DNA of 9,631 bases. Source: a virus (taxonomy: Duplodnaviria; Heunggongvirae; Uroviricota; Caudoviricetes). The DNA is taken from the IMG/VR virus record IMGVR_UViG_2740892233_000025; one strand, written 5' to 3'. This document shows, piece by piece, positions 1 through 9,631 of this stretch (within the stretch, counting starts at the first letter, position 1; each line of letters begins with the position of its first letter). The notes under the pieces are model-generated. The model was given only the letters and a program-made list of their open reading frames with translations, ran no database searches and was not told the DNA's origin. A program made the translations under genes and the position numbers.

Positions 1-123
1 TCTCTGGTGTACGGCGTGTTTCCAAACCAGGACGGCACGTTCACCGCAATGACGTATACCAAAAGCAAAACGTTTAAAACCGAAAATGGTGCCCGTCGCT
101 GGCTTGCCAAAAATACCAGCTAA
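1..123 (+). CDS. 3' end of an ORF that starts upstream of the window (…GARRWLAKNTS*); product unknown
   Basis: Frame +1 is open from position 1 to TAA at 121-123 with no start codon in the window. I do not recognise the protein. Confidence 0.35.
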   Translation, partial: SLVYGVFPNQDGTFTAMTYTKSKTFKTENGARRWLAKNTS

Positions 124-321
124 ACCATTTATTGGATTAATTCAATATTCTTGCTGTAGGGGTATAGCCGAGGCCACCAAAGCCCGGAGGTGGTGAAATA
201 AAACCGGGCACAACACGAAGGCGCATTTCCGGTATCCATAAAGAGTCGGTCTTGTCTGTTAAATTTAAATGGTGGGAGTGCGCCTCCGGTTGTGAATAAC
301 AACACTGCTGTGTGTAGTCTT

Positions 322-368
322 GGCGGCATCAGTTTTTTCTTGAAGTTCGACTGATGTCCGCCCTTTTT
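322..368 (+). terminator. Candidate rho-independent terminator (imperfect hairpin plus T-run)
   Basis: ggcggcatcag (322-332) pairs with ctgatgtccgcc (351-362) with one bulge, followed by cttttt (363-368). It lies about 200 nt downstream of the stop at 123 and upstream of kilR. Confidence 0.35.
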
Positions 369-543
369 AAAGTGAATTTTGTGATGCGGTGAATGCGGCT
401 AAGCGCACGCGGCACAGTTAAAAGTCATGTTAGTCCTTATTGGTTTGGGTGGGAAAGCCGACTGTAATTGTTAACTGGTTGCAGTCACCTGGAGGCACCA
501 GGCACCGCATCAACAAAGTTCATTTGTAAAAATGGAGATAATT

Positions 544-765
544 ATGATTGCACATCACTTCGGAACTGATGAAATACCACGTCAGTGTGTGACTCCTGGT
601 GATTATGTTCTTCATGAAGGCCGGACATATATCGCCTCGGCAAACAATATTAAAAAGCGAAAACTTTATATTCGTAACCTGACTACAAAAACATGCATTT
701 CTGACTGCATGATTAAAGTCTTCCTCGGTCGTGATGGTTTACCTGTAAAGGCGGAGTCATGGTGA
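544..765 (+). CDS. kilR: KilR, Rac-prophage killing protein (FtsZ/cell-division inhibitor), 73 aa
   Basis: Translation [51 protein letters not shown]… matches my recollection of K-12 KilR. GGAG at 534-537 sits 6 nt before ATG 544; the ORF-track start at 532 is a less likely in-frame upstream ATG. Stop TGA 763-765 overlaps the next start. Confidence 0.85.
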
Positions 766-935
766 TGACTAAGAAAATAAAATGTGCTTACCACCTTTGC
801 AATAAAGGAATTGAAGAAAGCAAAAGCATTAAAAGACCACTTCATTTCATGCGTGGAGTTATCCCAACGACGGAAATGAAAAAATATTGTAGTGAAAATT
901 GTGCCGAAAAAGACCAGATGGCACACGAACTTTAA
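765..935 (+). CDS. ydaE: YdaE-like small zinc-binding protein (Cys-rich), 56 aa, variant allele
   Basis: [56 protein letters not shown]. Conserved CxxxxC…CxxxC ends, diverged centre relative to the second copy. Start ATG 765 overlaps the kilR stop (gTGATGa). Too short for the supplied ORF track. Confidence 0.7.
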   Translation: MTKKIKCAYHLCNKGIEESKSIKRPLHFMRGVIPTTEMKKYCSENCAEKDQMAHEL

Positions 936-989
936 TTAACTGACTATGCGAAACTGAATTTATGCCAGCAATGGCAGGGATTCGCTCAA

Positions 990-1001
990 CCTTAATTAAG
1001 G
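990..1001. promoter_or_regulatory. Perfect 12-bp palindrome ccttaattaagg overlapping the racC Shine-Dalgarno
   Basis: Seen directly; conserved at 2733-2744 in the second copy. Function unknown; could be a dimeric protein-binding site or a translational element. Confidence 0.25.
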
Positions 1002-1008
1002 AGAAAAA

Positions 1009-1284
1009 ATGATTACCAATTATGAAGTCACTGTTGTAACTACCGATGACATTGTTCACGAGGTTAATCTGGAAGGAAAGCGTATTGGCTACGTGATTAA
1101 AACAGAAAATAAAGAAACCCCATTCACTGTGGTTGATATTGACGGTCCATCAGGCAACGTAAAAACACTTGATGAAGGTGTCACAAAAATGAGTCTGGTT
1201 CACATCGGAAAGAATCTGCCCGCAGAAAAAAAAGCCGGATTTCTGGCAACTCTGATTGCAATGAAATTAAAAGGTGAAATCTGA
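1009..1284 (+). CDS. racC: RacC, Rac-prophage protein of unknown function, 91 aa
   Basis: MITNYEVTVVTTDDIVHEVNLEGKRIGYVIKTENKETPFTVVDIDGPSGNVKTLDEGV… matches my recollection of K-12 RacC. AAGGAG at 999-1004 precedes ATG 1009. Confidence 0.8.
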   Translation: MITNYEVTVVTTDDIVHEVNLEGKRIGYVIKTENKETPFTVVDIDGPSGNVKTLDEGVTKMSLVHIGKNLPAEKKAGFLATLIAMKLKGEI

Positions 1285-1293
1285 AAAAAGAAA

Positions 1294-1312
1294 GCCTGCA
1301 CAACGTGCAGGC
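1294..1312 (+). promoter_or_regulatory. racC-recE intergenic RNA hairpin (copy A)
   Basis: gcctgcac / gtgcaggc 8-bp stem. The same position in copy B (3034-3058) has a different sequence that still pairs (agcctgcg / cgcaggct), i.e. compensatory changes. Confidence 0.35.
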
Positions 1313-1382
1313 CTGAGTGAAGAACCTGGGACATTTATTCATCACTCGCAGTAATTTTAATCTGAGTTGAGGTTAAAAAACA

Positions 1383-2332
1383 ATGAGCACAAAACCACTC
1401 TTCCTTTTACGGAAAGCGAAAAAATCATCCGGTGAACCTGACGTCGTCCTGTGGGCAAGCGACGATTTTGAATCAACCTGTGCCACTTTGGACTACCTGA
1501 TCGTTAAGTCAGGTAAAAAACTGAGCAACTATTTTAAAGCTGTTGCCACAAATTTTCCTGTCGTTAATGACCTTCCCCCTGAAGGTGAGATCGATTTTAC
1601 CTGGAGTGAACGCTATCAACTCAGCAAAGACTCCATGACCTGGGAACTAAAACCGGGAGCAGCGCCAGACGACGTTCACCATCAGGAGGATGCACCGGAA
1701 ACCGAAGAACCGACGGGAGGCCAGGAAGAAAACGCGCAGGCAGACGCCCACGAGGATTGCCAGGATTGCGAAGTCTCTGTAGCCACTTTGCGGTTCACAC
1801 AGCGTCTTCTGCACATTTTTACGTATGCAGCCGGGGATCGAAAATACCTGCATCATGCCACCCGTGAACAACGCAAACACATTACTGCTCTTGAGATGGA
1901 TCAGGAAAACAGCTATGTCCAGAATCTGCTGTTGGCCATACGCAGCATGGCAGAACCGACAACTCTGGATAATGCCGCCCTGCTCCGCCTGACTGATGCA
2001 ATTAAGGCAGTGTTCTCTATCACGAAAAAACATCAGCCCTATGAATTTAAGAATTTCATTTCAGCCTGGCTGGATACCGAACACATTGATCGCGGTCTTC
2101 TGACAAAAGAATGGCGAAAAGGGAATCGTGTTTCACGCATCACTCGCACGGCTTCCGGTGCTAATGCTGGCGGCGGGAACCTCACCGATCGCGGCGAAGG
2201 TTTCGTCCACGATCTGACATCACTGGCGCGCGATGTAGCCACTGGCGTACTGGCCCGTTCAATGGACGTGGACATCTATAACCTTCATCCGGCACACGCT
2301 AAACGCATTGAGGAAATTATCGCTGAAAATAA
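1383..2332 (+). CDS. recE: RecE (exonuclease VIII) N-terminal region, variant allele, 3'-truncated by the N-run at 2333
   Basis: N-terminus [26 protein letters not shown]… and the segment from DRGLLTKEW to EEIIAEN match the second recE copy. Codons ~97-235 (about 1671-2087) are replaced by unrelated sequence ([14 protein letters not shown]…HEDCQDCEV…). The ORF runs into the N-run. Confidence 0.7.
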
Positions 2333-2342: not shown

Positions 2343-2508
2343 CGATTATGTTCTTCATGAAGGCCGGACATATATTGCCTCGGCAAACAATATTAAAAAG
2401 CGAAAACTATATATTCGTAACCTGACCACAAAAACATGCATTACTGACCGCATGATTAAAGTCTTCCTCGGTCGTGATGGTTTACCTGTAAAGGCGGAGT
2501 CATGGTGA
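2343..2508 (+). CDS. kilR: KilR, 5'-truncated second copy (begins at …[16 protein letters not shown]…)
   Basis: In-frame kilR C-terminal 55 codons straight after the N-run, ending …[12 protein letters not shown]. Differs from copy A at TCITDRM versus TCISDCM. Confidence 0.75.
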
Positions 2509-2678
2509 TGACTAAGAAAATAAAATGTGCTTACCACCTTTGCAAAAAAGACGTTGAAGAAAGCAAAGCTATTGAAAGAATGCTTCACTTCATGCACGGG
2601 ATTTTATCAAAAGACGAACCGAGAAAATATTGCAGTGAAGCTTGTGCCGAAAAAGACCAGATGGCACATGAACTTTAA
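2508..2678 (+). CDS. ydaE: YdaE, Rac-prophage small zinc-binding protein, 56 aa
   Basis: [56 protein letters not shown], as I recall K-12 YdaE. Start overlaps the kilR stop (TGATG). Confidence 0.8.
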   Translation: MTKKIKCAYHLCKKDVEESKAIERMLHFMHGILSKDEPRKYCSEACAEKDQMAHEL

Positions 2679-2752
2679 TTAATTGACTATTCGAAACTGA
2701 ATTTATGCCAGAAATGGCAGGTATTCGCTCAACCTTAATTAAGGAGAAAAAC

Positions 2753-3028
2753 ATGATTACCAATTATGAAGCCACTGTTGTAACTACCGATGACATTGTT
2801 CACGAGGTGAATCTGGAAGGAAAGCGCATTGGCTACGTAATTAAAACAGAAAATAAAGAAACCCCATTCACTGTGGTTGATATCGATGGTCCATCAGGCA
2901 ACGTAAAAACACTTGATGAAGGTGTCAAAAAAATGTGCCTGGTGCATATCGGAAAGAATCTGCCCGCAGAAAAAAAAGCCGAATTTCTGGCAACTCTAAT
3001 TGCAATGAAATTAAAAGGTGAAATCTGA
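2753..3028 (+). CDS. racC: RacC, second copy, 91 aa
   Basis: MITNYEATVVTTDDIVHEVNLEGKRIGYVIKTENKETPFTVVDIDGPSGNVKTLDEGVKKMCLVHIGKNLPAEKKAEFLATLIAMKLKGEI. The ORF-track start at 2705 is an unlikely upstream extension; AAGGAG at 2742-2747 precedes ATG 2753. Confidence 0.85.
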   Translation: MITNYEATVVTTDDIVHEVNLEGKRIGYVIKTENKETPFTVVDIDGPSGNVKTLDEGVKKMCLVHIGKNLPAEKKAEFLATLIAMKLKGEI

Positions 3029-3033
3029 AAGAA

Positions 3034-3058
3034 ATAGCCTGCGTATGGCGCAGGCTAT
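3034..3058 (+). promoter_or_regulatory. racC-recE intergenic RNA hairpin (copy B)
   Basis: atagcctgcg / cgcaggctat 10-bp stem with loop tatgg. Structure is conserved with copy A while the stem sequence differs. Confidence 0.35.
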
Positions 3059-3129
3059 GAACAGTGTGTATCCGGCAAGATCATTCACTGAACAAAACGA
3101 ATTTTAATCTGAGTTGAGGTTAAAAAACA

Positions 3130-6100
3130 ATGAGCACAAAACCACTCTTCCTGTTACGGAAAGCGAAAAAATCATCCGGTGAACCTGACGTCGTCCTGTG
3201 GGCAAGCAACGATTTTGAATCGACCTGTGCCACTCTGGACTACCTGATCGTTAAGTCAGGTAAAAAACTGAGCAGCTATTTTAAAGCTGTTGCCACGAAT
3301 TTTCCTGTCGTTAATGACCTGCCCGCTGAAGGTGAGATCGATTTTACCTGGAGTGAACGCTATCAACTCAGCAAAGACTCCATGACATGGGAACTAAAAC
3401 CGGGAGCAGCACCAGACAACGCTCACTATCAAGGCAATACCAACGTCAACGGCGAAGACATGACTGAGATTGAGGAGAATATGCTACTCCCAATTTCTGG
3501 CCAGGAACTGCCCATTCGTTGGCTTGCTCAACACGGCAGCGAAAAACCGGTAACGCACGTTTCACGCGACGGACTCCAGGCATTACACATTGCTCGGGCT
3601 GAAGAACTACCGGCTGTTACTGCCCTGGCTGTTTCCCACAAAACCAGCCTGCTCGACCCGCTGGAAATTCGCGAACTCCACAAACTGGTTCGTGACACTG
3701 ACAAAGTTTTCCCTAATCCTGGTAATTCAAACCTGGGACTGATAACTGCTTTTTTCGAAGCATACCTGAACGCTGACTACACCGATCGAGGACTGCTGAC
3801 AAAAGAGTGGATGAAGGGTAATCGTGTTTCACACATCACTCGCACGGCTTCCGGTGCTAATGCTGGCGGCGGAAACCTCACCGATCGCGGCGAAGGTTTC
3901 GTACACGATCTGACGTCACTGGCGCGGGACGTAGCCACTGGCGTACTGGCCCGTTCAATGGATCTGGACATCTATAACCTTCATCCGGCACACGCTAAAC
4001 GCATTGAGGAAATTATCGCTGAAAATAAACCACCCTTTTCTGTTTTCCGCGACAAATTCATCACCATGCCTGGCGGGCTGGATTATTCCCGCGCCATCGT
4101 GGTTGCGTCCGTAAAAGAAGCACCAATTGGGATCGAGGTCATCCCCGCGCACGTCACTGAATATCTGAACAAAGTACTGACTGAAACCGATCATGCCAAC
4201 CCTGATCCGGAAANNNNNNNNNNGAAAGAAGCACCAATTGGGATCGAGGTCATCCCCGCACACGTCACTGAATATCTGAACAAAGTACTGACTGAAACCG
4301 ATCATGCCAACCCTGATCCGGAAATCGTGGATATTGCCTGCGGTCGCTCCTCGGCCCCGATGCCGCAACGAGTAACAGAAGAAGGAAAACAGGACGATGA
4401 AGAAAAACCACAACCATCTGGCGCAATGGCAGATGAACAGGCAACGGCTGAAACAGTGGAACCGAATGCAACTGAACATCATCAGAACACGCAGCCGCTG
4501 GATGCTCAGTCACAGGTAAATTCTGTTGATGCGAAATATCAGGAACTGCGNNNNNNNNNNTGCCCCGATGCCGCAGCGAGTAACAGAAGAAGGAAAACAG
4601 GATTATGAAGAAAAACCGCAACCATCTGGAACAACGGCAGTTGAACAGGGAGAGGCTGAAACAATGGAACCGGACGCAACTGAACATCATCAGGACACGC
4701 AGCCGCTGGATGCTCAGTCACAGGTAAATTCTGTTGATGCGAAATATCAGGAACTGCGGGCAGAACTCCATGAAGCCCGGAAAAACATTCCATCAAAAAA
4801 TCCTGTCGATGCCGATAAATTGCTTGCTGCATCACGTGGTGAATTTGTTGACGGAATTAGCGACCCGAACGATCCGAAATGGGTTAAGGGGATCCAGACT
4901 CGCGATTCTGTGTACCAGAACCAGCCAGAAACGGAAAAAATCAGCCCGGATGCGAAACAACCTGAGCCAGTAGTGCAACAGGAACCGGAAATAGTCTGCA
5001 ATGCCTGCGGTCAGACTGGCGGGGATAACTGCCCTGACTGTGGTGCGGTGATGGGCGACGCAACATACCAGGAAACATTCGATGAAGAGAGTCAGGTTGA
5101 AGCTAAGGAAAATGATCCGGAGGAAATGGAAGGCGCTGAACATCCGCACAATGAGAATGCTGGCAGCGATCCGCATCGCGATTGCAGTGATGAAACTGGC
5201 GAAGTCGCAGATCCCGTAATCGTAGAAGACATAGAGCCAGGTATTTATTACGGAATTTCGAATGAGAATTACCACGCGGGTCCCGGTGTCAGTAAGTCTC
5301 AGCTCGATGACATTGCTGATACTCCGGCACTGTATTTGTGGCGTAAAAATGCCCCCGTGGACACCACAAAGACAAAAACGCTCGATTTAGGAACCGCTTT
5401 CCACTGCCGGGTACTTGAGCCGGAAGAATTCAGTAACCGCTTTATCGTAGCACCTGAATTTAACCGCCGGACAAACTCCGGAAAAGAAGAAGAGAAAGCG
5501 TTTCTGAGGGAATGCGCAAGCACAGGAAAAACGGTTATCACTGCCGAAGAAGGCCGGAAAATTGAACTCATGTATCAGAGCGTTATGGCTTTGCCGCTGG
5601 GGCAATGGCTTGTTGAAAGCGCCGGACACGCTGAATCATCAATNNNNNNNNNNTACAAACGCCGGAAAAGAAGAAGAGAAAGCGTTTCTGATGGAATGCG
5701 CAAGCACAGGAAAAACGGTTATCACTGCGGAAGAAGGCCGGAAAATTGAACTCATGTATCAACGCGTTATGGCTTTGCCGCTGGGGCAATGGCTTGTTGA
5801 AAGCGCCGGACACGCTGAATCATCAATTTACTGGGAAGATCCGGAAACAGGAATTTTGTGTCGGTGCCGTCCGGACAAAATTATTCCTGAATTTCACTGG
5901 ATCATGGACGTGAAAACCACAGCGGATATTCAACGATTCAAAACGGCTTATTACGACTACCGCTATCACGTTCAGGATGCATTCTACAGTGACGGTTATG
6001 AAGCACAGTTTGGCGTGCTGCCAACTTTCGTTTTTCTGGTTGCCAGCACAACTGTTGAATGCGGACGTTACCCGGTTGAGATTTTCATGATGGGCGAAGA

Positions 6101-6233
6101 AGCAAAACTGGCAGGCCAGCAGGAATATCACCGCAATCTGAGGACCCTGGCTGACTGCCTGAATACCGATGAATGGCCAGCTATTAAAACGTTATCACTG
6201 CCCCGCTGGGCTAAGGAGTATGCAAATGACTAA
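3130..6233 (+). CDS. recE: RecE, exonuclease VIII (5'-3' dsDNA exonuclease), full gene but broken by three N-run junctions with duplicated flanks
   Basis: Protein matches my recollection of K-12 RecE from [14 protein letters not shown]… to …[13 protein letters not shown]. Pieces are 3130-4213, 4224-4550, 4561-5643 and 5654-6233; each neighbouring pair overlaps by about 100-190 nt of near-identical sequence, so the span (3104 nt) exceeds the expected ~2.6 kb. The frame is kept across the first junction and shifts at the second and third. Stop TAA 6231-6233. Confidence 0.85.
4214..4223. other. N-run (10 nt), contig junction with duplicated flank
   Basis: About 100 nt before the Ns ([33 protein letters not shown]) is repeated straight after, with one mismatch (gcgcacgtc versus gcacacgtc). 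Confidence 0.95.
4551..4560. other. N-run (10 nt), contig junction with duplicated, diverged flank
   Basis: About 190 nt before the Ns ([17 protein letters not shown]…DAKYQEL) is repeated after with roughly 15 substitutions (…GKQDYEE…[26 protein letters not shown]…). Confidence 0.95.
5644..5653. other. N-run (10 nt), contig junction with duplicated, diverged flank
   Basis: About 170 nt ([16 protein letters not shown]…[24 protein letters not shown]) is repeated after the Ns with substitutions (…FLMECAS…MYQRVMAL…). Confidence 0.95.
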
Positions 6234-7035
6234 GCAACCACCTATCGCAAAAGCCGATCTGCAAAAAACCCAGGGAAACCGTGCACCAGCAGCAGTAAAA
6301 AATAACGACGTGATCAGCTTTATTAATCAGCCATCAATGAAAGAGCAACTGGCAGCAGCTCTCCCACGCCATATGACGGCTGAACGAATGATACGTATCG
6401 CCACCACAGAAATTCGTAAGGTTCCGGCGCTAGGAAACTGTGACACCATGAGTTTTGTCAGTGCGATCGTTCAGTGTTCACAGCTCGGCCTTGAGCCAGG
6501 TAGCGCCCTCGGCCACGCATATTTACTGCCTTTTGGTAATAAAAACGAAAAGAGCGGTAAAAAGAACGTTCAGCTAATCATTGGTTATCGCGGCATGATT
6601 GATCTGGCTCGCCGTTCTGGTCAAATCGCCAGCCTGTCAGCCCGTGTTGTCCGTGAAGGTGACGAGTTTAGTTTTGAATTTGGCCTTGATGAAAAGTTAA
6701 TACACCGCCCGGGAGAAAACGAAGATGCACCAGTGACCCACGTCTATGCTGTCGCAAGACTGAAAGACGGAGGGACTCAGTTTGAAGTTATGACGCGCAA
6801 ACAGATTGAACTGGTGCGCAGCCAGAGTAAGGCTGGTAATAACGGGCCATGGGTAACTCACTGGGAAGAAATGGCAAAAAAAACGGCTATTCGTCGCCTG
6901 TTTAAATACCTGCCTGTCTCAATTGAAATCCAGCGTGCAGTATCAATGGATGAAAAGGAACCACTGACAATCGATCCGGCAGACTCCTCTGTATTAACCG
7001 GGGAATACAGTGTAATCGATAATTCAGAAGAATAA
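6226..7035 (+). CDS. recT: RecT, single-strand annealing recombinase, 269 aa
   Basis: [50 protein letters not shown]… matches my recollection of K-12 RecT. AGGAG at 6214-6218 sits 7 nt before ATG 6226; the ORF-track start at 6169 is an in-frame upstream extension. Overlaps the recE stop by 8 nt. Confidence 0.93.
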
Positions 7036-7091
7036 TTCAGCCTGGCGGTGTAATGCACCGCCAACGTGAGACAGTTTTTATGACAAAAATT

Positions 7092-7286
7092 ATGAGATAT
7101 GACGATGTTAAACCATGTCCGTTTTGTGGTTGTCCATCTGTTACAGTGAAAGCAATTTCAGGATATTACCGGGCAAAATGCAACGGATGCGAATCCCGAA
7201 CTGGCTATGGTGGAAGTGAAAAAGAAGCACTCGAAAGATGGAATAAACGAACTACTGGAAATAATAATGGAGGTGTTCATGTATAA
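7092..7286 (+). CDS. ralR: RalR (Lar), restriction-alleviation protein and type I toxin (DNase), 64 aa
   Basis: MRYDDVKPCPFCGCPSVTVKAISGYYRAKCNGCESRTGYGGSEKEALERWNKRTTGNNNGGVHV, a CxxC…CxxC zinc-ribbon protein at the Rac lar/ralR position. In-frame ATG at 7080 (MTKIMRYD…) is an alternative start. Confidence 0.78.
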   Translation: MRYDDVKPCPFCGCPSVTVKAISGYYRAKCNGCESRTGYGGSEKEALERWNKRTTGNNNGGVHV

Positions 7287-7467
7287 AATAACTGCCACTA
7301 TTGAAAAAGAAGGTGGCACTCCTACTAACTGGACAAGATATTCAAAATCTAAATTAACGAAATCAGAATGCGAAAAAATGCTCTCAGGGAAAAAAGAAGC
7401 AGGCGTGTCCAGAGAGCAGAAAGTAAAGCTGATAAATTTTAATTGCGAGAAACTTCTGTCCTCGTGA
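7279..7467 (+). CDS. Small hypothetical protein at the position of Rac ydaC (62 aa from ATG 7279)
   Basis: ORF 7207-7467. GGAGG at 7268-7272 precedes ATG 7279 (MYKITATIEKEGGTPTNWTRYSKSKL…). Overlaps the ralR stop by 8 nt in another frame. I do not recall the ydaC sequence, so the identity is positional only. Confidence 0.5.
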   Translation: MYKITATIEKEGGTPTNWTRYSKSKLTKSECEKMLSGKKEAGVSREQKVKLINFNCEKLLSS

Positions 7468-7522
7468 GTTGCATTATATACAAATTAGAACTTCATAGCT
7501 GATTATTAAAAATCAACCACAC

Positions 7523-7551
7523 CCGCCAGTATTCTGTATATTTACTGGCGG
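7523..7551. promoter_or_regulatory. Palindrome ccgccagta-N11-tactggcgg upstream of xis
   Basis: Perfect 9-bp inverted repeat seen directly; no T-run follows, so it is not a canonical terminator. Possible operator or RNA structure. Confidence 0.3.
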
Positions 7552-7573
7552 TCATATCGTAAGAGGTATGGCA

Positions 7574-7855
7574 ATGAATCTTGTGACACTCAAAACGTGG
7601 GGAAAACTCAGATATCCGGATAACCCACCATCAATATCAACGCTGAGACGATGGGCAAGGAATGGAAACATTTATCCTGCACCTGAACTACACGGGAGGA
7701 GTTACAGGGTGGTTCCGGAAGCTTTCTATATCAACCCAAATAAGGTTGATACCGATATAACACACCATCAGCCTAATGGGCGACAAGGGAGAGACAGTCC
7801 GTTACTGGAGAAGTTAAAACATGCAGCGGAAAAAATACGATCCCAATTTACCTAA
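7574..7855 (+). CDS. xis: Excisionase (Xis-like recombination directionality factor), 93 aa
   Basis: MNLVTLKTWGKLRYPDNPPSISTLRRWARNGNIYPAPELHGRSYRVVPEAFYI… resembles lambda Xis in its N-terminal half. AAGAGG at 7561-7566 sits 7 nt before ATG 7574 (ORF-track start 7568 is too close to the SD). The 3' end overlaps int by 35 nt, as in lambda. Confidence 0.7.
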   Translation: MNLVTLKTWGKLRYPDNPPSISTLRRWARNGNIYPAPELHGRSYRVVPEAFYINPNKVDTDITHHQPNGRQGRDSPLLEKLKHAAEKIRSQFT

Positions 7856-8897
7856 AAACTTAACATATCGAAGGAGGGACAAAGCATATTACTGGCGCAA
7901 CCCTCTGACGAAAGAAGAATTTACACTAGGTAAAATTTCAAGAAGAGATGCAGTAGCGCAGGCAATTGAAGCAAATCATTATATATACAAAAACTACTCT
8001 CCTGCTGCCTTAATTGAAAAACTAAAAGGGTTCGACTCATTTACTATGGCAGACTGGATTGAACGTTACAAAACGATTCTTATAAGGAGAAAAGTGTCCA
8101 GAAATACTTATAAAATTCGGGTAAATCAACTGGAGACAATAAAAGAAAAATTAGGAGGGGTTTTACTGACAGAAATAACCACTCGCCATATTGCCGAGTT
8201 TCTTGATTTGTGGATTGAAGGAGGGAAAAACACGATGGCAGGATCAATGCGTTCTGTGTTATCTGATATGTTCCGCGAGGCCATTGTTGAAGGACGTATA
8301 TCTCAAAATCCAGTAACGCCAACAAGAGCACCGAAAATAGTAGTTACAAGAGAACGGCTGAAACTAAAGACATACAACTGCATCAGGGAGGCAGCAGATC
8401 AACTTCCGACATGGTTCCCATTAGCTATGGACTTAGCCCTTGTAACAGGACAACGTCGCGAAGACATAACAAATATGCGGTTCAGTGAGATTTATGATGA
8501 TCGTCTCCACATCAGGCAAATTAAGACAGGAATGATGATTGCTATCCCCCTGTCACTCAGCCTTCCTGTCGCTGGTTTACGACTTGGTACAGTAGTTGAA
8601 CAGTGCCGCATGGTAAGTAGGGGGGATTATCTAATCAGTGCCGGGATTAGAAAAAACAGCCCTGACGGCAGCATTCACCCGGACGGCCTGACAAAGAAAT
8701 TTGTCGCAGCCAGAAAATTAACAGGTATCCAGTTCAGTGAAAACCCACCAACTTTTCACGAGATCAGAAGCCTGGCTGGACGATTGTACAAAGAAACATG
8801 TGGGGAAGAATTTGCTCAACGTCTACTTGGCCACACATCGGAGAAGACAACAAAAATGTATCTTGATGAGAGAGAAAAAACGTACTTACTGCTCTGA
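7821..8897 (+). CDS. int: Lambda-family tyrosine integrase, 358 aa
   Basis: Collinear with lambda Int as I recall it, e.g. [24 protein letters not shown] versus lambda LAMELAVVTGQRVGDLCEMKWSDI, and [19 protein letters not shown]…[18 protein letters not shown] versus lambda FEGDPPTFHELRSLSARLY…LLGHKSDTMASQYRDDRG. It is not the P4-type IntR of K-12 Rac. Confidence 0.9.
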
Positions 8898-8944
8898 TTT
8901 TAACGTAAATGGATTGTTAAATGTGTTTTGGTTGTGATATAACC

Positions 8945-9047
8945 AAAAAAGACCGGAATACAGAAATTCGAGTAAATTTCGAGTAATTTCGGGGAGACGT
9001 TTGCAACTAATTGATTTTAAATACAATTAAAAAAAGACCGAATACGA
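8945..9047. other. attL-like junction: P' arm with direct repeats plus a core that coincides with the sdsR 3' terminator
   Basis: ttcgagtaa repeated at 8967-8975 and 8978-8986 (11-bp phasing, candidate arm-type Int sites). Core candidate aaaaaaagaccgaatac at 9029-9045; a near-copy aaaaaagaccggaatacag at 8945-8963. Confidence 0.5.
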
Positions 9048-9131
9048 TTCCTGTATTCGGTCCAGGGAAATGGCTCTTGGGAGAGAGCCGTGCGCTAAAA
9101 GTTGGCATTAATGCAGGCTTAGTTGCCTTGC
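9029..9131 (-). ncRNA. sdsR: SdsR (RyeB) sRNA, sigma-S-dependent, about 103 nt
   Basis: Minus-strand sequence GCAAGGCAACUAAGCCUGCAUUAAUGCC…GACCGAAUACAGGAAUCGUAUUCGGUC plus U7 matches my recollection of E. coli SdsR. The terminator hairpin has a 10-bp perfect stem (9036-9045 / 9053-9062). A sigma-S-type -10 lies upstream and the expected neighbour yebY is adjacent. Confidence 0.7.
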
Positions 9132-9258
9132 CCTTTAAGAATAGATGACGACGCCAGGTTTTCCAGTTTGCGTGCAAAATGGTCAATAAAAAGCGTGGTG
9201 GTCATCAGCTGAAATGTTAAAAACCGCCCGTTCTGGTGAAAGAACTGAGGCGGTTTTT
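9034..9258 (+). ncRNA. ryeA: RyeA (SraC) sRNA, antisense to sdsR; 5' end uncertain
   Basis: In E. coli ryeA is transcribed opposite to and fully covers sdsR. The + strand terminator at 9224-9260 is the likely 3' end. A candidate promoter ttgcaa-N15-tacaat (9001-9027) lies on the prophage side of the core, so the 5' end may be phage-remodelled. Confidence 0.35.
9134..9170 (-). promoter_or_regulatory. sdsR promoter, sigma-S-type extended -10 (tctattcttaaa)
   Basis: Minus-strand tctattcttaaa at 9145-9134 resembles the sigma-S -10 consensus and sits directly upstream of the sdsR 5' end at 9131. Confidence 0.45.
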
Positions 9259-9260
9259 TT
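9224..9260. terminator. Bidirectional rho-independent terminator (ryeA on + strand, yebY on - strand)
   Basis: Interrupted hairpin ccgcc-c-gttct / agaac-tga-ggcgg flanked by an A-run (9219-9223) and T7 (9254-9260). Confidence 0.6.
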
Positions 9261-9289
9261 ATTGGAAATCAAAAGGCTATTTTAGGTAA

Positions 9290-9631
9290 TTAACAGAGTT
9301 TTTCAGCTCGTTCTATAAACGGTGCCAGACTCATTTTTTCGCCGGGATTGTTAGGATCATCAATCTGAATCACCGAAATGGGTTGGGCTTTAGTCTTCCC
9401 ACTGGCAACTTCCTTTTGTGCGATATCGTTTAAAGGATACTGCACGAGGGTACTTGGGTTAATGACATACAAAGCATTACCCGGTCTGCAAGTCAGCATC
9501 ACCTCTTCGCGATTAAACGCCCATTTGTCTTTACCCACTTCAAAACGACTGACGGTAATCACCTGCGGTGCAGCCAGCGCCGCTGCAGAACTGGTGAGTA
9601 ACAGAAACGTCAGAATACTTTTTTTCATCAT
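9290..9631 (-). CDS. yebY: Small exported protein with N-terminal signal peptide and two Cys (YebY-like), 113 aa; host flanking gene
   Basis: [24 protein letters not shown]… is a clear Sec signal peptide. The size and the position next to sdsR/ryeA fit the E. coli pphA-sdsR-yebY arrangement. The symbol rests on that context and an imperfect recollection of the sequence. The start codon sits at the window edge. Confidence 0.6.

Follow-up and report, generated by a model that had tools for sequence, protein, structure and literature searches.

The window analysed here, a 9,631-nt stretch of DNA from a virus of the class Caudoviricetes, very probably consists of interleaved contigs of two Rac-family prophages. 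The block in which its two recE 5' regions differ very probably represents ancient alleles of a single protein domain that have been shuffled by recombination. What is seen here is prophage mosaicism of an ordinary sort, affecting a gene that is already well annotated, and no new kind of system. Blocks would be exchanged by homologous recombination; the catalysts are probably divergence-tolerant RecET/Red-type systems encoded by the phages themselves, and crossovers would fall in the conserved sequence on either side of the block. Crossovers at these positions would account for the recurrence of junctions at domain boundaries. The alleles themselves would be functionally interchangeable parts of the non-catalytic N-terminal region of RecE.

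Organisation of the window

Four spacers of ten Ns (2333-2342, 4214-4223, 4551-4560 and 5644-5653) split the window into five pieces, and translations of open reading frames that cross these spacers contain XXXX runs. Neighbouring pieces share overlaps of 100-1,732 nt, with identities of 88-99%: positions 601-2332 recur as 2344-4028, 4114-4213 as 4225-4324 (99%), 4354-4550 as 4562-4758 (92%) and 5471-5643 as 5655-5827 (97%). The pieces were mapped onto the complete genome of a close relative, E. coli O26:H11 11368 (NC_013361.1), to which they are near-identical, using the regions of its Rac-like prophage at the yebY site (L001) and of its Rac prophage at the ttcA site (L002). For pieces 1, 3 and 5, identity is 99.9-100% with the yebY prophage against 93-95% with the ttcA Rac; for pieces 2 and 4 it is 99.95% and 99.2%, respectively, with the ttcA Rac against 91-97.5% with the yebY prophage.

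Piece 1 (1-2332, plus strand; 99.96% over 2,332 nt to L001 4619-6950 and 93-94% to the ttcA Rac) carries kilR, ydaE-like and racC-like genes and the 5' part of recE, referred to here as the A allele. Piece 2 (2343-4213, plus strand; 99.95% over 1,871 nt to L002 6214-8084) covers again what piece 1 contains at 601-2332, with the 3' part of kilR, ydaE, racC and the 5' part of recE (B allele); the spacer after it is flanked by sequences that are 99% repeats of each other. The middle part of recE follows in piece 3 (4224-4550, plus strand) as the allele of the yebY prophage, with 100% identity to L001 7035-7361 and 94.8% to L002. Piece 4 (4561-5643, plus strand) holds the middle and 3' part of recE as the ttcA Rac allele (99.2% to L002 8113-9195; 97.5% to L001). 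Piece 5 (5654-9631, plus strand; 99.9% to L001 8073-12049) carries, according to the annotation of L001 and to Pfam and Rfam matches, the 3' end of recE (to 6233), recT (6226-7035), ralR/RalA, a DUF1187 gene, xis, int, ryeA/ryeB and yebY.

Judged by this mapping to the complete genome of a close relative, the window is best described as a reference-ordered, gapped scaffold that interleaves contigs of two paralogous prophages from one E. coli genome, the background of which is O26/O103-like EHEC. The yebY and ttcA loci lie approximately 700 kb apart in NC_013361.1 (record positions ~2.577 Mb and ~1.875 Mb), and the pieces map to them alternately; the two recE 5' regions are therefore paralogous alleles and do not represent a tandem duplication. 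The original prediction had placed two recE copies in one locus, which is an artefact of scaffolding. The other apparent duplications and the frameshifted XXXX open reading frames spanning the pieces are likewise artefacts, because the contigs alternate between paralogous prophages. Genes that appear "duplicated, partly replaced" in gapped scaffolds can thus be contigs of paralogous prophages placed side by side. It is for this reason that recE breaks up assemblies, and most of its database matches are labelled "partial".

Membership of the RecE family was assessed on the complete genes of NC_013361.1, whose identity to the window pieces is 99.9-100% (99.2% for piece 4). Both proteins align end to end with the NCBIfam equivalog NF007259 (cutoff 1,269 bits), at 1,679.6 bits for A and 1,822.3 bits for B. 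Both also match Pfam PF06630 (cutoff 25 bits), at 226.2 bits for A (residues 2-182) and 327.1 bits for B (residues 2-178). The nuclease domain, residues 622-883, is the only part of the protein with a solved structure (3H4R); it matches 3h4r_A with a phmmer E-value of 7.2e-178 and Pfam PF12684 with 97.5 bits. The recT gene of the window was identified by a Pfam RecT match (E 1.5e-56). An overlap of recE with recT is annotated in both L001 and L002, where the gene order is kilR-ydaE-racC-recE-recT-ralR-xis-int.

A sharply bounded block of divergence between the recE alleles

Allele A is represented by codons 1-316 (1383-2332, plus strand), its open reading frame being cut by the first spacer; the complete gene encodes 883 aa (WP_000105101.1, NC_013361.1). 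Allele B is represented by codons 1-361 (3130-4213, plus strand), the product of which is identical to MG1655 RecE (b1350) at 361/361 aa, confirming that its segment is K-12-like, as had been predicted. The full-length B protein has 866 aa, A being 17 aa longer. Outside aa 97-235 of A and 97-218 of B the full-length proteins are ~96% identical, whereas the two blocks share only ~20% amino acid identity.

A maximum chi-square test for two breakpoints on the DNA alignment of the two alleles placed the block at A 1680-2088, with a chi2 of 341 against a maximum of 21.4 among 200 permutations. Identity is 40% inside the block (249/414 columns differ) versus 94.6% outside it (29/541 differ), in agreement with the near-identical flanks and sharp boundaries that had been claimed. 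At base level and in a sliding profile the left junction falls at A ~1680-1685/B ~3427-3432 and the right junction at A ~2085-2090/B ~3781-3786, DNA identity being ~95% on the 5' side and 93-100% on the 3' side. The coordinates originally given for the block (1671-2087 and 3418-3783) match aa 97-235 and 97-218, respectively, to the codon and lie within ~10 nt of the DNA breakpoints.

Of 5,426 complete E. coli genomes, 278 (predominantly O26, O103 and related STEC) contain the A arrangement without interruption at 99.9-100% identity, under the annotation recE. For the B arrangement, 1,445 genomes show query coverage of 80% or more, and many STEC genomes contain both alleles. Between A and B the flanks remain ~5% different (pS 0.06-0.07), and this particular pair has therefore not undergone recent exchange.

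Domain map of the RecE N-terminal region

Structure prediction for each variant had been proposed earlier; AlphaFold2 (AF2) models of both predict a disordered linker followed by an all-helical domain within the block. The left flank, aa 1-96 (1383-1670, plus strand), is an N-terminal alpha/beta domain with 93/96 aa identical between A and B; in A its pLDDT is ~86-94 over most of its length and lower (76) for residues 1-10. In A, the block opens with an acidic, predicted disordered linker, aa 97-127 (1671-1763, plus strand; pLDDT <50), which ends at CQDCEV, and continues with the variable part of the helical domain, aa 128-235 (1764-2087, plus strand), where helices are modelled at 138-231 with pLDDT ~90. 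Homologue alignment defines the right flank, aa 236-266 (2088-2180, plus strand), as a near-invariant last helix starting DRGLLTKEW and a Gly-rich linker. In model A (mean pLDDT 78.5) the all-helical domain as a whole spans ~130-245, followed by the Gly-rich disordered linker at 259-272 (pLDDT <50) and further helices at 278-315.

Module B, aa 97-218 (3418-3783, plus strand), has a shorter linker and a divergent helical domain, with AF2 helices at 127-228. Model B (mean pLDDT 77.7) comprises the alpha/beta domain (1-96), a disordered linker (98-104), an all-helical domain (111-228; pLDDT 51-88), the Gly-rich linker (239-251) and further helices (261-349). According to these models, the block is the linker plus most of one all-helical domain of ~110 aa. 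On the left the block opens at the beginning of the linker, and on the right it stops where the last, near-invariant helix of the domain begins; from there, columns D236-G265 are invariant or near-invariant across 36 diverse homologues. The outcome is a domain-level map of the region: alpha/beta domain, acidic linker, exchangeable helical domain, invariant helix with Gly-linker, and further helices.

The right-flank stretch (A 2088-2180, B 3784-3876) is the most conserved of the N-terminal region, with 17 invariant columns among the 36 homologues; part of it falls within the Gly-rich linker that is predicted to be disordered, and it is a site at which recombination junctions recur. The HEDCQDCEV motif that had been singled out is indeed present in the acidic segment of copy A, but it is conserved only in A-like types; it has only two Cys residues and is located at the margin of the disordered linker. 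Further downstream, a zinc-ribbon-like CxxC-x8-CxxC motif was observed at RecE aa ~545-560 (piece 4, ~5040-5090), within the central low-complexity, acidic part of the protein, where a Pfam DZR match is weak (E 0.75).

Homology of the A and B modules

The segments had been described as unrelated. Compared directly by BLASTP, modules A and B give a co-linear but borderline match (23% identity, E 0.13). Among 120 database relatives, a web of BLAST matches connects them: B matches P0103 (37% over 115 aa), P0103 matches P0088 and P0091 (43% over 125 aa), and P0088 and P0091 match A (31-35% over ~104 aa), while P0112 matches both modules. With hhalign, a wide A-family profile aligned with a strict B group containing no B-side bridges at E 6.9e-6 over 101 columns, and inclusion of bridging sequences gave E 5e-14 with a probability of 98%; a comparison of only the close relatives of A with only those of B was not significant (probability 2.9%). 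As this strictest pair of profiles is not significant, homology rests on the intermediates, the wider A profile and predicted secondary structure. Three hydrophobic core residues of the module (L143, F211 and F225) are invariant across 36 diverse sequences, and the AF2 helices of A and B pair one to one at an offset of -17, the match of folds being judged by this correspondence of helices. Taken together, these alignments and models support the view that A and B are distant homologues, that is, ancient and highly diverged alleles of one helical domain, contrary to the original description.

Module types, reassortment and copy number

The N, module and C regions of 79 sequences were each clustered at 80% identity, which yielded six N types, eleven module types and ten C types in 27 combinations. 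Four-gamete quartets are present for every pair of regions, and identities calculated region by region show that N-flank, module and C-flank vary independently. Across homologues the block thus falls into discrete types, and the proposal that a discrete module is exchanged by recombination is supported by this reassortment of types with flanks. P0017 (A type) and P0062 (B type), for example, both pass into a downstream region of 50% identity directly after GANAGGGN, and in P0096 a B module is joined to an unrelated N-terminus at ~aa 100. The same two junctions, at ~aa 100 and after GANAGGGN, are used repeatedly. Both lie in conserved flanks that could support crossovers: the left flank has 97% protein identity and the right, DRGLLxKEW...GANAGGGN, is near-invariant.

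Modules are shuffled among Rac-like prophages of Enterobacteriaceae, and the A module is also present in Rac prophages at the ttcA site. An exhaustive profile search of 1.84 billion proteins returned 329 representative proteins (E <= 1e-3); in many of these the match begins only at the module or only past the Gly-linker. In 12 of 267 collected relatives the module is present twice in tandem, the repeats being 24-32% identical (E 8e-10 to 1e-18). The module is therefore an autonomous domain, and relatives differ in how many copies of it they carry as well as in which allele. The relatives with tandem modules are P0109, P0130-P0133, P0135, P0138, P0146, P0154, P0160, P0179 and P0199.

P0016 was considered as a third module type and rejected, being an A type with a 39-aa in-frame deletion. 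The deletion removes approximately two helices (A aa 182-220), and P0016 may be either a pseudogene or a natural variant that has lost the domain.

Constraint on the module and its genomic partners

dN/dS was estimated from seven A-type alleles, which are non-independent sequences. It is lowest in the C-flank (0.06), followed by the helical domain (0.12) and the N domain (0.14), and highest in the acidic linker (0.47), where pS also exceeds that of the neighbouring regions. The value of 0.12 indicates that the helical domain is kept by selection.

K-12 RecE is a 5'-3' dsDNA exonuclease, and the full-length protein stimulates linear-linear recombination (PMC11611040, PMC11610958). The same reviews tie the N-terminal region to this enhanced linear-linear recombination without a defined function, which they describe as unknown or unclear (PMC11611040, PMC11610958), consistent with the statement in the original prediction that its function is poorly defined. 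Our literature searches, the coverage of which was not exhaustive, returned no earlier description of allelic or domain variation in the N-terminal region of RecE. Fold searches returned no credible relative.

Module type is not tied to integration site or prophage backbone. It had been suggested that the module could reflect host or partner specificity. The A and B modules of the O26 genome adjoin RecT proteins that are 99.3% identical to each other. The A module of STEC711 occurs together with a nuclease domain of only 29% identity and with a RecT lacking BLAST similarity to Rac RecT. Specificity for RecT was therefore rejected on the examples examined, as module type follows neither RecT nor the nuclease domain. 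The STEC711 locus (L004, NZ_CP041416.1, 8694-12943) encodes a 1,048-aa RecE, of which the N-terminal ~750 aa are of Rac type and include the A module, followed by a 362-aa RecT-family protein; this represents a larger swap of the catalytic end and the annealase partner.

Evaluation of alternative explanations

The presence of N spacers and repeated segments in the window might suggest that copy A is a misjoined chimera or that the 5' end of recE is truly present in tandem. Either is highly improbable: the A arrangement is uninterrupted in the 278 complete genomes mentioned above, which already refutes the chimeric assembly that had been named as a possible source of error; the block junctions lie well within piece 1, 240-650 nt from the spacer; and the mapping of the pieces to two distant loci argues against a tandem. 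Hypermutation or fast divergence in situ, driven for instance by a diversity-generating retroelement or a cassette system (invertible or silent), would also produce a sharply bounded hypervariable stretch within an otherwise conserved gene. We attach next to no probability to this, as the window contains neither an inverted repeat, nor a template copy of the module, nor a reverse transcriptase open reading frame. A repeat search of the window found 0 inverted repeat pairs, and the direct repeats are contig overlaps only. Moreover, the same module types recur unchanged with other flanks, in all four-gamete combinations, and the divergence between types includes indels and saturated synonymous sites while selection within a type is purifying. 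Programmed variation of any of these kinds (diversity-generating retroelement, shufflon or silent cassette) was rejected, the window having no reverse transcriptase or invertase open reading frame; its sole recombinase is the prophage integrase.

There are two functional readings of the block, both of which we regard as unlikely. One holds that the ~110-aa helical domain is a previously undefined, autonomous exchangeable unit, present in one or two copies and at least eleven types, the type of which tunes the activity of the protein. If so, module type may tune linear-linear recombination, in which full-length RecE differs from the nuclease domain, or the interaction with a host or phage factor, and natural alleles such as A and B would differ in function. 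The other, which we consider slightly less probable still, is that the block is a specificity cassette setting the partner or host factor of RecE, with A and B functionally distinct. There are many discrete module types, and only the hydrophobic core is kept between types while conservation within a type is strong (dN/dS 0.12), a pattern that would also be expected of a binding surface under type-specific constraint. Against a specificity cassette, module type does not co-vary with RecT, nuclease domain, integration site or backbone, both types are found in one host cell, and fold and family searches gave no match pointing to a binding function. Ancient alleles of one domain, reassorted by recombination, remain the reading that we prefer.

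The natural variants, namely the alternative alleles, the 39-aa in-frame deletion and the tandem duplications, could help to dissect the advantage of full-length RecE. With them it could be addressed why the full-length protein outperforms the truncated enzyme in linear-linear recombineering.

Other features of the window

Two further divergent patches were observed between pieces 1 and 2. One (810-900 versus 2553-2643; ~70% identity against a background of ~95%) lies in the middle of 58-aa ydaE-like open reading frames at 759-935 and 2502-2678, which encode a YdaE-family zinc-binding protein. The other is intergenic, just upstream of recE (1289-1345 versus 3033-3092). Mosaicism is therefore not limited to recE.

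In piece 5, the antitoxin sRNA RalA (7285-7463, minus strand; Rfam 219 bits) overlaps open reading frames at 7053-7286 and 7207-7467 (plus strand) and is antisense to the region of ralR (Lar family) and DUF1187, as in the K-12 Rac. The integrase gene (7821-8897) is followed immediately by a bidirectional sRNA locus formed by SraC/RyeA (9025-9169, plus strand; Rfam 179 bits) and SdsR/RyeB (9029-9128, minus strand; 118 bits), and then by yebY (9290-9631, minus strand). The yebY-side prophage ends beside this sRNA locus, directly behind its integrase gene, at what appears to be its chromosomal junction. The SraC/RyeA-SdsR/RyeB locus is a reported hot spot of insertion.

Comparison with known systems

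The closest known counterpart of copy A is the RecE of the K-12 Rac prophage (exodeoxyribonuclease VIII, b1350), which it resembles in domain order, in the overlap of recE with recT and in the 96%-identical remainder of the protein. It differs in carrying another allele of the linker and helical domain (aa 97-235 versus 97-218), and its prophage is located at yebY/ryeAB and not at ttcA.

In both alleles, the match to Pfam PF06630 ('Exonuc_VIII', 203 positions) takes in the alpha/beta domain together with some of the helical module, Pfam treating the two as a single domain. The AF2 models and the junctions instead indicate two units (1-96 and ~128-245) with a disordered linker between them, the latter unit being duplicated in some relatives.

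Mosaics among lambdoid and defective prophages have been attributed to relaxed homologous recombination by Rad52-like recombinases, including RecT of Rac, with a median mosaic length of ~400-500 bp and gene fragments being exchanged more often than whole modules (PMC3945230). The recE block is like the mosaics described by De Paepe et al. 2014 (PMC3945230) in being a sharp block of ~400 bp, a size in line with the median given there, with conserved flanks, and in reflecting exchange of gene fragments between temperate phages and defective prophages. Those mosaics are defined by identity of at least 90% against a divergent background, while here the block is divergent and the background conserved (PMC3945230). 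Unlike in those mosaics, the recE junctions coincide with predicted boundaries of protein domains.
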